A stretch of DNA of 64,000 bases, from assembly GCA_001001705.1 (NCBI GenBank), contig LCOG01000005.1, forward strand, positions 40,714 to 104,713. Reading direction: 5' to 3'. The position numbers and the translations under genes were made by a program. A model generated the notes under the pieces. That model made no database searches and had not been told where the DNA came from. It saw only the letters and a list, made by a program, of their open reading frames with translations. Positions 2,652 to 6,441 of this stretch are shown piece after piece. Position 1 is the stretch's first letter. Every line of letters starts with the position of its first letter. Source of the DNA: Parcubacteria group bacterium GW2011_GWA2_47_26. GTDB taxonomy: Bacteria; Patescibacteriota; Patescibacteriia; GWA2-47-26.

Positions 2652-2680
2652 TTGACAAGGGGGGCGGTTTATGCTAATAT
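2652..2680 (+). promoter_or_regulatory. Sigma-70-like promoter upstream of GC-rich cassette 1
   Basis: TTGACA (2652-2657), a 17-nt spacer, then TAATAT (2675-2680). Confidence 0.45.
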
Positions 2681-2750
2681 ACACAGCTAACCTGAAAAAT
2701 GCCTAAATAGGGCATAGGTTCAGGGGTTCTTTGAGAAAACACGCAAAAAT

Positions 2751-2851
2751 CCCCCCTCTTAAGATAAGAGGGGGTGGGGGAGTTATGAACCATTCCTGCT
2801 CAAGGCGGGCAGGCATAACCCACCCTCGCCCTCCCTTACCTTAAGGGAGGG
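2751..2851. repeat. Family-G short hairpins (CCCCTCTTAAG..CTTAAGAGGGG type), two copies
   Basis: CCCCCCTCTTAAGATAAGAGGGGGTGGGGGAG (2751-2782) and CCCTCCCTTACCTTAAGGGAGGG (2829-2851). Confidence 0.7.
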
Positions 2852-2872
2852 GAATTGATTGAAAGCGACAAA

Positions 2873-3069
2873 CACTCGGCCGCGGAACTAGTTGTTCCGC
2901 CGCGGTTGGGTGAGGTAATAGTCATTCTGATCCGCCTCGGCGGCGGAGAAGAATCCCGTCCTGTAAAGCACGGGATCCTTCACTGCGCAGGATGACGAAA
3001 GAAAAAGGAGCAACAGACCCATAACCGCCGGTGCGCCCAGAGGGGCAGCCGGCACGATGGAGGAAAGCC
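2873..3069 (+). promoter_or_regulatory. Conserved 5' 'handle'/leader of GC-rich cassette 1 (interrupted by family-A repeat 2921-2996)
   Basis: CACTCGGCCGCGGAACTAGTTGTTCCGCCGCGGTTGGGTGAGGT hairpin, then AACCGCCGGTGCG..CAGCCGGCA..GGAGGA SD. It is near-identical to 4728-4846. Confidence 0.6.
2921..2996. repeat. Family-A palindromic element (GTCATYCTGAR...YTCAGRATGAC)
   Basis: GTCATTCTGATCC...GAAGAATCCCG...GGGATCCTTCACTGCGCAGGATGAC. It lies in the 5' leader of cassette 1 and is absent from the cassette 2 leader. Confidence 0.85.
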
Positions 3070-4002
3070 ATGAAGAAGAAGTTGTTTCTGTTCGTGGCCG
3101 TCAGCCTCTGGCTGGCGGCCGGCAACGTGTGGGCCGCCCCGGCCCCCGGCGGCACGGCCACGGCGGTCGCGTGCGTTCTGAACCCGGAGCCCGGTGCCCA
3201 CGAGCGGCCGGTGTGCGTCGTTCCCTACGGGGTCGCCGACCACTATCGGTACCGCATCGAAGCCGGCGCGTGGCGGAAGCCGGCGCCGGCGGACGGCGGT
3301 GACTTCTACCCGGGCAAGCTGTCCGGAGAGCGATTCCGGTGCGCTAGCGGGTTTGTGATGAGCGCCACCGGGAAGGTGATGGTGGTCGGGTTCGACGTGG
3401 TCGGCAAGGAGGTTTGCCTGTCCGCGGGCGAGTACGTGATCACCACGCCCGCCACGCCCGCGCCGCGCGCGGTCGCCAGCGTGCGCCCCGCGGCTCCGGC
3501 TCCCGCCGCGGTGGCCCCCGCGTCCCCGGCCCCGCCGGCCGTGCAGCTGGACGATGTCCGGCGGCTTGACCAAGAGGTGGAGGTTCGGGCCGAGGTGACC
3601 GCCCGCGCCCTGGTCATGGACCGGACGCGTCTCTACGGCCGCGCGGTGTCGTCCTCCGAGTGGCGGGAGTACCCCGTCATTACCGACCGCAAGTGCGTGG
3701 AATCGGAGGAGGTCGAGGGCAACCCCGGAAACCGGCGGTGCACCAAGTGGGACACCACGGGCATCAACCCCGTGGAGGCCTACTCGGGGTTGCTGGGGGC
3801 CAACCAAGACCTGGCGGCGGCGATCGGGAATGTGCAGGCCGAGCAGCAGCGCGGCTGGTGCATCCGCCACCCTGGTTGGTGCGCGGTGGTGATCGCGGGC
3901 AGTACCGCCGCGGTGGCCGGCCTTGTGGTCGGCATCGCGGCGGCCAGCCGCTTTGACGGCGGCCCCAGCATCCAGGCTGCGCCCGCCGCCATCCGGTTCT
4001 AG
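3070..4002 (+). CDS. GC-rich secreted/membrane-anchored protein of unknown function (cassette 1 cargo)
   Basis: GGAGGA SD 6 nt upstream of the ATG. Signal peptide MKKKLFLFVAVSLWLAAGNVWA/AP, a Pro/Ala-rich linker and a C-terminal TM (WCAVVIAGSTAAVAGLVVGIAAA). I prefer the ATG at 3070 over the track's alternative start at 3031. Confidence 0.6.
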   Translation: MKKKLFLFVAVSLWLAAGNVWAAPAPGGTATAVACVLNPEPGAHERPVCVVPYGVADHYRYRIEAGAWRKPAPADGGDFYPGKLSGERFRCASGFVMSATGKVMVVGFDVVGKEVCLSAGEYVITTPATPAPRAVASVRPAAPAPAAVAPASPAPPAVQLDDVRRLDQEVEVRAEVTARALVMDRTRLYGRAVSSSEWREYPVITDRKCVESEEVEGNPGNRRCTKWDTTGINPVEAYSGLLGANQDLAAAIGNVQAEQQRGWCIRHPGWCAVVIAGSTAAVAGLVVGIAAASRFDGGPSIQAAPAAIRF

Positions 4003-4045
4003 TTTCGTTCCTTCCTACCTAAGTCTCCCCATCCCGGGGGGCATG

Positions 4046-4090
4046 CCGGAGCAGAGAGCTAACCCCTCTTTGCTCCGGATCCATATTTTT
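4046..4090 (+). terminator. Intrinsic terminator in the conserved 3' handle of cassette 1
   Basis: CCGGAGCAGAGA-loop-TCTTTGCTCCGG followed by ATCCATATTTTT. Confidence 0.6.
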
Positions 4091-4164
4091 CACCCTCTAC
4101 TTTTGTAACATGTAGCTTGTAGCATGTAACACAAGATTGGGCAGGGGTTGAGAAAAATGGATGA

Positions 4165-4202
4165 TAAAACAAAAACAAAAGGAAGCCCTTTTCAGGGCTT
4201 CC
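4165..4202 (-). terminator. Intrinsic terminator (minus strand)
   Basis: Perfect hairpin GGAAGCCCT-GAAA-AGGGCTTCC (4202->4181), followed on the minus strand by TTTTGTTTTTGTTTT. Confidence 0.65.
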
Positions 4203-4503: not shown

Positions 4504-4601
4504 GTCATTGCGAGTCCCGCGTCTGCGGGACGTGGCAATCCCCTGCAATTACGAGGAGATTGCTTCGTCGTCCCGCGACTGCGGGACTCCCTCGCAATGA
4601 C
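4504..4601. repeat. Family-A variant palindromic element (GTCATTGCGAG...CTCGCAATGAC)
   Basis: GTCATTGCGAGTCCCGCGTCTGCGGGAC...GTCCCGCGACTGCGGGACTCCCTCGCAATGAC, intergenic. Confidence 0.8.
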
Positions 4602-4727
4602 GGATTGGAAGTTTCGTAATTCATAAAATAAAACACGGATTTGATTTCAGATAGGCATACCTATTCAGTTGCGATTTGTAATGGTCTGTGATGTCGCTCA
4701 AATCTCACGGCTACAAGTAATCGACAG

Positions 4728-4846
4728 CACTCGGCCGTGGAACTTAGTTGTTCCGCCGCGGTTGAGTGAAGTTTACGAGTAGAGGAACGACGAACCACAA
4801 ACCGCCGGTGCGTCCATAAGAGGGACAGCCGGCATGGAGGAAGAAG
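4728..4846 (+). promoter_or_regulatory. Conserved 5' 'handle'/leader of GC-rich cassette 2
   Basis: CACTCGGCCGTGGAACTTAGTTGTTCCGCCGCGGTTGAGTGAAGT ... AACCGCCGGTGCGTCC..CAGCCGGCATGGAGGAAGAAG-ATG. It aligns with 2873-3069. Confidence 0.6.
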
Positions 4847-5905
4847 ATGTGCAAGAAGAACCTGTTTTTGTTCGTGGCCGTCCTCACCGGGATGGCCCAC
4901 CTGATCGGTTGCGGCGGCGAAGGGGGACCGGACTGGGTCCGGTGTGTCAACGGCACGCTCTGGCCAGCGAGTGGGGCGCTTCCCGCGGACTGCACCCGTG
5001 AGCCGATTCCGGACGCGGGTCCCTCGGTGGACTCGGGCCGGTCGGATCTGGGCCAGCCCGACAGTGGGACGGACGCGGTGGCGGATACCGGTCCGTCGCC
5101 CGATTCCGGCCCCGGCGATGGCGGTTCCGACACGACCCCGCCGGCCGACGGTGGGACGGGTGACACCGTCCCTCCGACTCCGGACGCGGGTACGCCGGAC
5201 GTGCTGGGCTGCACCCCGGGTGTCGCCCGTGTCTGCGGCACGGACGTGGGTGAGTGTGTGGCAGGCACCCAGATCTGCCTCACGGGAGGTGTGTGGTCGG
5301 CCTGTTTCAGCAGCGTCGGCCCGACCGCCACCGAGTCGTGCAACAGCCGCGACGACGACTGCGACGGAGTGACCGACGAGGGGCTGGGCTCCTCGTCCTG
5401 CGGGGTCGGGGCCTGCCAGCGCACGGTGCAGAACTGTGCGAGCGGCGTCGCCCAGACCTGCACCCCGGGGACCCCGACCGCGGCGGAGGTGTGCGGCAAC
5501 GGCCTGGACGACGACTGCGACGGAGCGACCGACGAGGGCTGCGCCGTTCCGCTGGCGCCGGCACGGGTGACCTGGGCGGCCCCGGCGGGGTGGGTGGTGG
5601 ATGACATCCGCCACAACATCACCGTCAGGTGGGTGGAGTTGCCGGTGGGCGGCGTGGCGTCGTACTACGCGGACTTCCCGGTGGTGCTGGGGCGGCCGTA
5701 TCTCGTGAACGGCCGACTCCGCAACACGACCACCGACGAGGTGCGGTACTTCGTCGAGTACCTCACCGGCTTCAGCCTGACGCCGCCCTGCGTGGGTGTG
5801 GCCCCGACCACGTTCGGGACCATCACCTTCGCCATCGGGGCGCGGGTGGTGGCCTGCCCCCTCGGCGGCGCGGCCTGCGTCGCCAACGCCACCTGCACGC
5901 CGTAG
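4847..5905 (+). CDS. GC-rich lipoprotein with two CxxGxDDDCDGxxDEG Cys-rich (MopE-like putative metal-binding) motifs (cassette 2 cargo)
   Basis: Lipobox signal peptide MCKKNLFLFVAVLTGMAHLIGC. PDSG/PDAG-rich linker. CNSRDDDCDGVTDEG and CGNGLDDDCDGATDEGC motifs. GGAGGA SD upstream. Confidence 0.65.
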   Translation: MCKKNLFLFVAVLTGMAHLIGCGGEGGPDWVRCVNGTLWPASGALPADCTREPIPDAGPSVDSGRSDLGQPDSGTDAVADTGPSPDSGPGDGGSDTTPPADGGTGDTVPPTPDAGTPDVLGCTPGVARVCGTDVGECVAGTQICLTGGVWSACFSSVGPTATESCNSRDDDCDGVTDEGLGSSSCGVGACQRTVQNCASGVAQTCTPGTPTAAEVCGNGLDDDCDGATDEGCAVPLAPARVTWAAPAGWVVDDIRHNITVRWVELPVGGVASYYADFPVVLGRPYLVNGRLRNTTTDEVRYFVEYLTGFSLTPPCVGVAPTTFGTITFAIGARVVACPLGGAACVANATCTP

Positions 5906-5956
5906 CCGCAACCGCGCGTTTCGTTCCTTTCATAATCCTCAGCTAACCCCTCCTAA

Positions 5957-6166
5957 CCTCCCCTTAACCTAAGGAGAGGAAACGGAGAGGAAGAGCCGAG
6001 CGACACAAGTCTCCCCATCCCGGGGAGCAGGCCGGAGCAGAGAGTTAACCACTCTTTGCTCCGGATCCATATTTTTCACCCTCTGAATTGGTAACCCCTC
6101 CTAACCTCCCCTTAAGCTAAGGGGAGGAAATGAAAGAGAGCTCCTTCCCCTTAATCTAAGGGGAGG
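5957..6166. repeat. Family-G hairpins, three copies (CCTCCCCTTA-NNN-TAAGGGGAGG)
   Basis: Copies at 5957-5979, 6105-6127 and 6143-6166. The first interrupts the 3' handle of cassette 2. Confidence 0.7.
6032..6076 (+). terminator. Intrinsic terminator in the conserved 3' handle of cassette 2
   Basis: Same CCGGAGCAGAGA...TCTTTGCTCCGG + ATCCATATTTTT as at 4046-4090. Confidence 0.6.
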
Positions 6167-6212
6167 AAATTGAGAGGAACCAGGGGTTGAGAAAAATGGG
6201 TGTTGAAGTTCT

Positions 6213-6280
6213 GTCATTCTGAGCGAAGCGAAGAATCCCGCGCCTTTAAGAACGAGATCCTTCACTGCGTTCAGGATGAC
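6213..6280. repeat. Family-A palindromic element
   Basis: GTCATTCTGAGCGAAGCGAAGAATCCCG...GAGATCCTTCACTGCGTTCAGGATGAC, intergenic. Confidence 0.85.
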
Positions 6281-6441
6281 GGCGTGAACAGGGATTGAGA
6301 AACATGGTAAAAACAAAAATCCCGAGGCGGTTTGGTGGATTGCTTGGAATGTTTTCCTCCTCATTCCTTTTGCAACCCCATCAAACCACCTTGGGATTTT
6401 TTGATTTTTGTGGTTAAATAGAGACAGGAGTTCATAAACGT

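Follow-up and report, generated by a model that had tools for sequence, protein, structure and literature searches.

A fast-evolving, GC-enriched gene block between wzz and wzy in Parcubacteria and Uhrbacteria, and the shared flanks of two of its genes in one lineage

Two GC-rich genes for exported proteins share their flanks

We analysed a 64-kb stretch of DNA from Parcubacteria group bacterium GW2011_GWA2_47_26 (the window, to which all positions refer unless a contig is named; 48.7% GC overall), concentrating on two neighbouring GC-rich genes, here termed gene 1 and gene 2, that lie between wzz and wzy in a cluster for surface polysaccharide, and on the non-coding sequences that frame both of them (Table 1). 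Contigs and loci used for comparison are designated by L numbers; L010 is from Candidatus Uhrbacteria, and six more were fetched with wzz as anchor. In 400-nt windows, GC content reached 0.66–0.74 over 3001–4000 and 4801–6000. Gene 1 has 72.1% GC, with 0.70, 0.56 and 0.90 at the first, second and third codon positions (GC1, GC2 and GC3), and gene 2 has 71.9% (0.66, 0.61 and 0.89), as compared with a GC3 of 0.30–0.70 in 40 other open reading frames (ORFs) of the window and 0.39–0.51 in the immediate neighbours of the pair. A preliminary description of this stretch, made from the sequence alone, had noticed the contrast with the surroundings, which the computed values bear out, and had reported seven to nine long overlapping ORFs in nearly all frames there; we counted eight of at least 60 amino acids over each, a sign of stop-codon depletion. 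The order GC3 >> GC1 > GC2 was restricted to the annotated frames, and these are therefore real: both are genuine coding frames under strong GC pressure and not GC-rich noise.

Each of the two ORFs is a real gene, and its product an exported protein of the cell surface. The product of gene 1 begins with a readable Sec signal peptide (ending ..GNVWA before AP), continues with a fibronectin type III (fn3)-like module at about residues 56–127 and a Pro/Ala linker, and ends in an RGWCxRxPxxC motif and a hydrophobic membrane anchor. Its C-terminus is 43% identical to that of u216, which occupies the same position in the L011 block. A word-indexed search of 5.8 billion proteins yielded no homologue. 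Scanned in full with HMMER, 1.84 billion representatives gave only a shortened copy of the protein itself and a weak fn3 match, in which residues 56–127 pair with the fn3 repeats of P0178, a large surface protein. An AlphaFold model computed without an alignment was unusable (predicted local distance difference test score 36). The product of gene 2 is composed of a lipobox (LIGC), a Pro/Asp/Gly linker, two MopE-type Cys/Asp repeats (PF11617, E = 7.7e-13) and a C-terminal domain. Its database similarity runs through the MopE repeats only, the best matches being MopE proteins named for Acidobacteria, Myxococcota and similar taxa; its positional counterparts in related loci are u732 of L011, MopE705 of L010 and MopE1197 of L012. 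As first described, the two proteins are unrelated past the signal peptide, their common part being residues 2–16 only, with the start KK(K/N)LFLFVAV.

Each gene and its flanks form a unit, and four elements recur between the two units. The 5' hairpin block (2873–2916 versus 4728–4772) is 93–94% identical, the leader together with the first ~15 signal-peptide codons (3039–3116 versus 4819–4896) about 80%, and the 12-nt motif GTTTCGTTCCTT past the stop codon (4002–4013 and 5918–5929) is identical; the 3' block (4021–4098 versus 6007–6084) agrees at 74 of 78 positions, and at 91% when extended to 89 nt. These are the four pairs of the preliminary description, all of them recovered where it had placed them and with its count for the 3' block. 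Patterns built on the flanks gave two matches each in the window and none in 100 shuffles. All copies lie on the + strand, with no minus-strand copy within three mismatches anywhere in the 64 kb. Resident repeats have inserted differentially, again as first noticed: a family-A miniature inverted-repeat transposable element (MITE), of which the window holds at least 11 copies, lies in the 5' flank of unit 1, and a family-G repeat in the 3' region of unit 2.

Several of these elements are predicted to fold. The two substitutions between the copies of the 5' stem (C:G to U:G, U:G to U:A) both preserve its pairing, but only when G:U (G:T) pairs are counted, and the + strand folds at −12.0/−12.3 kcal/mol versus −10.8/−8.2 for the − strand. 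The leader hairpins differ by one compensatory pair, C:G in copy 1 and U:A in copy 2. The 3' block consists of two stem-loops (z = −3.9 to −4.2). It had been described as ending in a stem-loop and a T-run, and both are present; the U-run begins 7–8 nt past the stem, and with this displacement a consensus terminator scan does not call the structure. Because the stem-loops and the 3' block are 93–95% identical and the leader and signal region only ~80%, the uneven conservation suggests constraint on the stem-loop structures rather than merely recent copying.

The preliminary description had proposed looking for these flanks around other genes. Beyond the two copies, we found no third one in the window or the 7 kb upstream, nor in genome, metagenome, viral, phage and plasmid collections that lack the source genome. 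In searches that did not return the source locus itself, the 5' hairpin had no match in genome and viral contigs and the 3' block none in viral and metagenome contigs. A shorter hairpin pattern matched one metagenome contig (L009), inside a coding region and without a partner arm, and we regard this as chance. Neither unit had a BLAST match among phage and plasmid records, BLAST of the flanks against the related loci returned only resident repeat families and a tRNA-like element, and a regular-expression search for the 5' hairpin in relatives produced nothing convincing. Rfam reported nothing at gathering thresholds, with sub-threshold noise only in 2600–6500.

Table 1. Features of the locus in window coordinates
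Feature	Position	Strand	Description
Xer-like tyrosine recombinase, 5' part	1–583	−	359-aa gene, remainder left of the window
wzz-like chain-length determinant	1231–1857	+	Pfam Wzz/GNVR, NCBIfam polys_exp_MPA1; conserved left anchor
MNT + HEPN toxin–antitoxin pair	MNT 1919–2245, HEPN 2215–2613	−	Pfam NTP_transf_2, HEPN; MntA
Block promoter	2652–2680	+	TTGACA, 17 nt, TAATAT, TG before −10; 10/12 consensus
Leader motif	2698–2720	+	AATGCC..AAATAGG(G/C)CAT, downstream of promoter; also L010 5050, L014 12349
5' flank, copy 1	2868–2916	+	16-bp stem-loop with 3-nt bulge
Family-A MITE	2921–2996		Inside 5' flank of unit 1, absent from unit 2; ends GTCATTCTGA...TCAGGATGAC
Leader, copy 1	3023–3069	+	Small hairpin CCGGUG..GCCC/GGGC..AGCCGG, then unpaired GGAGGA Shine–Dalgarno; z = −4.1
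Gene 1	3070–4002	+	310 aa, exported surface protein; GC3 0.90
3' flank, copy 1	4003–4109	+	TTTCGTTCCTT, small hairpin, 13-bp hairpin, then AUCCAUAUUUUUC; z = −4.2
wzy-promoter-region copy	4136–4168	+	Motif CAGGGGTTGAGAAAAATGG; degenerate as promoter
tRNA-like element	4172–4392	−	Followed by promoter 4277–4249 and terminator 4202–4181
MITE-like insert	4450–4715		25-nt terminal inverted repeats; inner palindrome GTCATTGCGAG...CTCGCAATGAC
5' flank, copy 2	4723–4772	+	Stem-loop, z = −3.0
Leader, copy 2	4800–4846	+	Small hairpin, then exposed GGAGGA
Gene 2	4847–5905	+	352 aa lipoprotein; MopE-type repeats; GC3 0.89
3' flank, copy 2	5918–6095	+	GTTTCGTTCCTT 5918–5929 and block 6007–6095, family-G insertion between
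Family-G repeat	5944–5982		Inside 3' region of unit 2; family recurs elsewhere in window
wzy-promoter motif copies	6175–6315	+	6181 and 6289, family-A MITE 6213–6280 between
wzy 5' leader	6315–6410	+	Stem GGCGGUUUGG / CCAAACCAC round CUCCUCC loop, then U-run
wzy (O-antigen polymerase/ligase family)	6467–8140	+	Pfam Wzy_C; 49% identical to L010; conserved right anchor; several in-frame MITEs

The whole region is identical in contigs of several independent Rifle groundwater assemblies, including GCA_001001845.1. Eight contigs from at least five assemblies are collinear, their sole differences being gaps at 3446–3497, a stretch of 87–90% GC inside gene 1 where two contigs begin and a deletion or N-runs interrupt two older scaffolds; four assemblies bridge it with identical sequence. 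Breaks at the flank boundaries had been named beforehand as the mark of an artefact. They fall inside gene 1 instead, and this weak point is a coverage problem within a gene and not a join at the edges of the flanks. The MITEs within the flanks, the concordant assemblies and the synteny with relatives agree with the earlier view that the locus is a genuine part of this genome.

A GC-enriched block lies between wzz and wzy in related genomes

In L010, the wzy homologue is preceded by 7.6 kb at 63–71% GC. Comparison across loci revealed a common order of AI-2E transporter, conserved uncharacterised protein, PDZ protease, wzz and a variable block, of which the succession PDZ protease, wzz, GC-rich block recurs in L010, L011, L012/13, L014, L015 and L019. 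Orthologues of wzz occupy the same position in L010–L020 (47–72% identical to the window copy), and wzy and GT4 glycosyltransferase genes follow the block in the window, L010, L011 and L019; the L012–L015 contigs stop before wzy. In L020, wzz and wzy are 4 nt apart, leaving an empty site. The block holds Ser/Thr kinases (L010, L014 and L015) and small secreted proteins or lipoproteins, and its last gene encodes a MopE-repeat protein in L010–L012. The layout of L011 is that of the window: wzz, HEPN/MNT pair, secreted anchored protein, MopE lipoprotein, wzy.

A block between wzz and wzy is thus present in at least seven Parcubacteria/Uhrbacteria lineages, and it evolves fast. Its proteins diverge much faster than the flanks (compare wzz above): the kinases of L010, L014 and L015 are 36–38% identical, the MopE proteins 30–40%, and the small proteins are mostly unalignable. 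Composition sets the block apart as well. Its GC3, given before that of the flanking genes, is 0.89–0.90 versus 0.4–0.5 in the window, 0.76–0.86 versus 0.52–0.61 in L010, 0.65–0.76 versus 0.36–0.45 in L011, 0.58–0.81 versus 0.56–0.59 in L012, 0.80–0.89 versus 0.43–0.44 in L014, 0.58 versus 0.49–0.54 in L015 and 0.58–0.74 versus 0.27–0.34 in L019. Overall, the block is compositionally deviant and GC-enriched in seven lineages and absent in one, among genomes that do not include close relatives at the species level. The enrichment is confined to coding sequence: spacers within the block stay at host GC (0.41–0.58) in all six loci measured, and the coding sequences lie 15–25 GC points above the genome and above their own intergenic spacers.

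Between lineages, wzz, wzy and GT4 genes are 29–37% identical at their four-fold degenerate sites, as compared with ~26% by chance. With synonymous sites of the flanks thus saturated, a single old transfer followed by amelioration cannot give the GC3 of 0.6–0.9 seen today. Neither such a transfer nor regional biased gene conversion fits, and the enrichment stops at the coding-sequence boundaries; the remaining possibilities are a force at the codon or protein level that keeps the genes GC-rich, or the replacement of coding bodies one at a time.

Shared flanks between block genes were found in none of the six related loci, and the leaders and signal peptides of the two L011 block genes differ from each other. 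Single elements do have counterparts. The L011, L012 and L014 counterparts, but not MopE705 of L010, have a (K/R)LF start and, after it, a lipobox. A hairpin with a CCA(U/A)AUUUUU-like tail follows the MopE gene of both L010 and L011, and in L011 also u216, the first block gene. Downstream of the MopE gene, L010 (9557–9695) and L011 (11223–11363), a pair whose coding genes show only 66–73% nucleotide identity, share a non-coding element of ~140 nt at 84% identity. This element, of which the window has only the last stem-loop, is probably a regulatory region or a structured RNA. Two adjacent and otherwise unrelated block genes of L010 end in the same C-terminal PPPxGGGxAxVxxAE-stop (4917–4967 and 5810–5860, 73% nucleotide identity), a further instance of gene ends held in common within the block.

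The promoter lies outside the repeated unit

The preliminary description had included the promoter in a repeated cassette. Instead, a single upstream promoter, the only strong one on the + strand, precedes both units and lies outside the repeated sequence, and it is conserved in relatives as TTGACAA-N-TTTATG(C/T)TA (L010 5005, L011 7704, L012 20242). The motif CAGGGGTTGAGAAAAATGG, present at 4142 and 6181 and with two mismatches at 6289, is the spacer of the wzy promoter, which in L010 reads TTGACA-17-TAGAGT; the copies at 4142 and 6181 are therefore duplicated pieces of the wzy upstream region. In keeping with this, the surrounding 4136–4168 aligns with L010 9714–9750, which contains that promoter, and with L011 11380–11410. 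This motif had been said to precede each unit, with a variant at ~2721; the 4142 and 6181 copies stand, and for the ~2721 variant we found no match within three mismatches and no convincing alignment. The copy at 6283–6315 is likely the working wzy promoter. The wzy leader that follows it is conserved in L010 (~9820–9910) and L011 (~11420–11500) and, with its anti-Shine–Dalgarno-like CUCCUCC loop, could be an attenuator or a regulatory RNA.

Origin of the shared flanks

We lean, with moderate confidence, towards reading the flanks as the ordinary ends of a MopE-lipoprotein transcript that were copied to the neighbouring gene in this lineage, and not as the ends of swappable cassettes. Genes 1 and 2 would be this genome's members of the fast-evolving wzz–wzy block of the surface-polysaccharide cluster. 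The 5' end of the MopE transcript would comprise the stem-loop of the 5' untranslated region (UTR), the small hairpin before the exposed Shine–Dalgarno sequence and the first ~15 signal-peptide codons, and its 3' end the double stem-loop with displaced U-run together with a duplicate of the region that holds the wzy promoter. Segmental duplication or gene conversion, confined to this lineage, may have copied these ends onto the neighbour, after which selection would have retained the stem-loops and resident MITEs would have inserted. As cis signals, the flanks could act in 5' protection or processing of the mRNA, translation start, export and 3'-end formation, RNA-level functions predicted here from sequence and folding. 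Since a (K/R)LF start and a lipobox also occur in the L011, L012 and L014 counterparts, the shared signal-peptide start was probably that of the MopE gene originally, and would then have been copied to gene 1.

The absence of shared flanks from the six related loci argues for a lineage-specific copy rather than the design of a system, and duplicated flanks by themselves are an ordinary local copy. Of the modular expression cassette first proposed, a leader and signal peptide, an unrelated GC-rich body and a structured 3' end are all in place; the promoter outside the repeat, the lack of a third copy in the window and collections searched and the relatives without shared flanks do not fit it.

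Several observations weigh against the copying of transcript ends. Transferring both flanks without the body between them needs at least two events, and the 3' stem-loop would be a non-canonical terminator. The scanned collections do not return even the source locus, which makes the negative results for the flanks there weak. Coding-only GC enrichment with host-like spacers is expected from gene-by-gene replacement as well. The MopE module of gene 2 is 51–65% identical (79% over 63 aa) to non-CPR proteins (CPR, candidate phyla radiation) encoded on contigs of ~70% GC and 37–45% identical to its CPR counterparts, that is, less similar to the latter. Finally, a Xer-like recombinase gene lies 2.1 kb upstream of the units in this genome only and is missing at the relatives' locus.

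Alternative explanations

Genes 1 and 2, and more broadly the block genes of each lineage, might have been captured recently from ~70%-GC bacteria (Myxococcota or Acidobacteria, for instance), the interval between wzz and wzy acting as a recombination hot spot that is refilled repeatedly with genes of similar kinds. We consider this unlikely. In its favour, GC, GC3 and amino-acid bias are as in true high-GC contigs (L016 and L017, GC3 0.88–0.93), gene 2 finds its best matches among Acidobacteria, Myxococcota and similar taxa with its MopE module nearer to non-CPR proteins, gene 1 lacks relatives, and L020 has an empty site. Moreover, as synonymous sites in the flanks are saturated, an unameliorated GC3 is not old unless it is maintained. 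Recurrent capture does not readily explain why the same types of gene, in the same order and with a conserved CPR-type promoter and 3' elements, are found in several lineages, nor why the lipoprotein signal of gene 2 and the anchor of gene 1 match those of CPR counterparts. The closest donor among 5.8 billion proteins reaches only ~60–65% over 100 aa, and there was no phage or plasmid match. Capture from a high-GC organism, as put forward in the preliminary description, is too simple for genes with positional counterparts in CPR genomes and a block that is GC-enriched in seven lineages.

Alternatively, the block might be a CPR-specific surface-protein variation locus, its coding bodies swapped or converted singly between host-like regulatory spacers, with the shared flanks as recombination arms and with high-GC DNA as the source, which the episymbiont's bacterial host, for one, could supply. 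The coding-only GC3 of 0.6–0.9, kept across lineages whose synonymous sites are saturated, would then be the footprint of gene traffic, or of an undescribed codon-level force. We hold this to be rather doubtful.

Still less probable, in our estimate, is a surface-protein variation system behind one promoter, in which the flanks serve as recombination arms or sites and homologous recombination or the Xer-like recombinase deletes, excises or exchanges coding bodies. Such a system has a precedent in the Mycoplasma vsp and vpma loci, where neighbouring genes have a highly conserved 5' UTR and signal-peptide region and are otherwise unrelated (PMC2268961). Here, too, the 5' UTR and signal peptide are common to two genes with unrelated mature parts, a single strong promoter lies in front of them, a tyrosine recombinase is encoded 2.1 kb away, GC enrichment is coding-only in all lineages, and the HEPN/MNT pair is inverted relative to L011. 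Against this, the flank copies are direct, with no inverted copy in 64 kb, and the recombinase scores as Xer rather than as an integron integrase (IntI) and is absent from the relatives' locus. The hairpin has no R'' (RYYYAAC) partner, its bottom strand folds worse, and the relatives have no shared flanks. No alternative junction appeared in eight contigs from at least five assemblies, a weak argument since assemblies collapse minor variants.

That a recombination hot spot has raised the GC of the block through regional GC-biased gene conversion, with the flanks as its footprint, is very improbable. The flanks do show that conversion or duplication occurred here, and the lineage with homogenised flanks also has the highest GC3; however, the block spacers remain at host GC in all six loci. 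We know of no bacterial report of a GC3 shift approaching that from ~0.45 to 0.9, which further counts against biased conversion. An assembly chimera of CPR DNA with that of a high-GC organism has next to no probability, as the contig breaks, gaps and deletions that might suggest one lie in the 87–90% GC stretch of gene 1, away from the flank boundaries, and are spanned identically by four assemblies, resident MITEs sit inside the flanks, and further genomes, sampled at other sites, show the same architecture.

Comparison with known systems

Among the closest parallels are the vsp, vpma and vsa loci of Mycoplasma bovis, M. agalactiae and M. pulmonis, respectively, which like the present locus combine a conserved 5' UTR and signal peptide with divergent mature parts, here in two genes. 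The setting of surface proteins in a small-genome, host-dependent bacterium is common to both (PMC2268961), and a tyrosine recombinase gene lies nearby, although the one here could be a housekeeping Xer. In contrast to those loci, ours has only two genes in direct orientation, with no inverted sites or alternative arrangements seen; the sharing extends to the 3' flank, the GC of the genes exceeds that of the genome, and the recombinase is absent from the locus in relatives.

Integron arrays offer a second likeness, with unrelated ORFs in the same orientation bracketed by near-identical structured repeats, one promoter, and a toxin–antitoxin pair and a tyrosine recombinase nearby. The preliminary description had seen no integrase adjacent to the units. 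A Xer-like tyrosine recombinase gene does enter the window at its left edge, though it is not IntI: the best scores are those of XerD and XerC models in the NCBIfam/hidden Markov model comparison (228–237 bits; XerD 231 and XerC 228 in NCBIfam), and the integron-integrase models stay far below their cut-offs (TIGR02249, 119 bits versus 265; NF011946, 86 versus 435). The description was right that there is no attC-like site. The 5' hairpin carries GTTGGGT/GTTGAGT on its 3' side, but CACTCGG, without AAC, on its 5' side, so that the R'' box is missing, and it relies on top-strand G:T pairs. The hairpin also lies 70–150 nt upstream of the ORFs, with 613 nt of host-like DNA between the units, and unlike integron repeats those described here contain a Shine–Dalgarno sequence and signal-peptide codons and frame two units only. 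We therefore rejected an integron cassette array.

Hypervariable O-antigen and capsule loci resemble the block in holding genes of atypical composition between conserved polysaccharide genes, in varying between lineages and in having empty sites. They differ in content and in composition, as the present block encodes secreted proteins, lipoproteins and kinases and not sugar enzymes, and its GC is raised rather than lowered, in coding sequence only, and persists across divergence that has saturated synonymous sites. A phage moron is likewise a self-contained unit, made up of leader, ORF and 3' stem-loop, that differs in composition from its surroundings. Here, by contrast, the neighbours are rpsO, wzz, a toxin–antitoxin pair, wzy and glycosyltransferase genes, and the promoter is outside the repeated unit; there were no phage genes around the locus and no match in phage collections. 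Borrelia vls is a surface-protein variation locus with a GC content far above that of its genome. Unlike vls, the present locus has no silent cassette arrays and no strong GC skew, and its genes are mutually unrelated. Dispersed copies of the flanks, as expected of an IS200/IS605-type or MITE-like unit, were not found in the window or in the collections lacking the source genome, both copies being at this locus. For pdif sites and integrative mobile elements exploiting Xer (IMEX), which have 28-bp XerC/XerD sites (11-6-11) on either side of the module, no 11-6-11 palindrome was noticed on reading the unit edges; a dif consensus for the lineage is lacking, and no dedicated search was made.

A conserved, GC-enriched block of exported-protein genes inside a CPR polysaccharide operon appears to be undescribed in the literature we searched on CPR, GC islands and MopE. 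We file it as a hypervariable surface locus held between conserved genes. What is unusual is that, in several CPR lineages, genes for exported proteins and kinases form a block in the middle of a surface-polysaccharide operon, with the GC of its coding sequences raised despite saturation of synonymous sites. If that GC is maintained, a strong local force on base composition would act in genomes that are small and poor in recombination; should transfer refill the block instead, a gene-by-gene import route would exist that could hint at the hosts of these episymbionts. Either way, synteny makes it possible to locate a set of fast-evolving surface proteins, which are candidates for contact with the host.

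Neighbouring genes and further observations

The recombinase gene corresponds to L001 6435–7514 (−), which maps to window positions −496 to 583, and carries an in-frame family-A MITE at ~105–162. Between it and the units, 2.1 kb downstream, lie rpsO, wzz and the toxin–antitoxin pair, and it could be a housekeeping Xer. The HEPN/MNT pair is found in the same place after wzz in L011 (6911–7605), in inverted orientation and with 66% nucleotide identity (to L011 7581–6910); we looked for inverted repeats flanking the pair that might explain the inversion and found none.

The tRNA-like element between the units combines an acceptor-like GGGCCGU/ACGGUCC with a canonical T-arm and is called by neither ARAGORN nor Rfam. 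It is followed by a promoter (TTGACA-17-TACCAT) and, ~50–80 nt further on, a terminator, which judging by their spacing would bracket a unit of ~70 nt. The region also has a 22-nt inverted repeat (4220–4241/4342–4363), kept with a different sequence in L011, and a perfect DnaA box, TTATCCACA, conserved in the window and L011. The L011 homologue lies at 11560–11860 and has the 3' end ..ACGGTCCACCA. The single tRNA called by ARAGORN, a tRNA-Thr at 20337–20413 (−), was considered as an att partner for this element and rejected, being a likely false positive in the Ala/Gly-rich part of a 2186-aa ORF (14457–21017). Within this giant surface-protein gene, 16725–19189 and L010 18901–21365 agree at 81% of nucleotides over 2.5 kb, far above the 65–74% of the other shared genes.

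Family-A MITEs crowd the first 10 kb of the window (105–162, 1133–1211, 6768–6861, 7032–7134, 7854–7947, 8416–8505, 9673–9749 and 10257–10361). Several are in frame within the wzy, glycosyltransferase and recombinase genes, and none lies within the GC-rich coding pair. Milder GC-enriched spots occur at 42990–43805 and 56303–57223 (GC3 0.63–0.71), one encoding a calcineurin-like phosphoesterase and the other a product without family match. In L020, two GC-enriched genes for secreted proteins or lipoproteins (3414–5400) lie just upstream of wzz, with a GC3 of 0.56–0.66 versus 0.34–0.37 in their flanks.

A gene at 13134–13508 encodes a four-helix-bundle protein of the bAvd-like/23S-rRNA-IVP type. 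Involvement of a diversity-generating retroelement was considered and rejected, this gene being 7 kb off and the one neighbouring ORF checked (13548–14381) having no reverse-transcriptase domain. In three genomes, genes resembling those of type IV secretion systems (T4SS) and conjugation (T4SS pilin, PrgI, TraC-like and TraG-like ATPase) occur within 5–10 kb upstream of the block, at L001 1–803, L011 1–1261 and L014 1175–4285.

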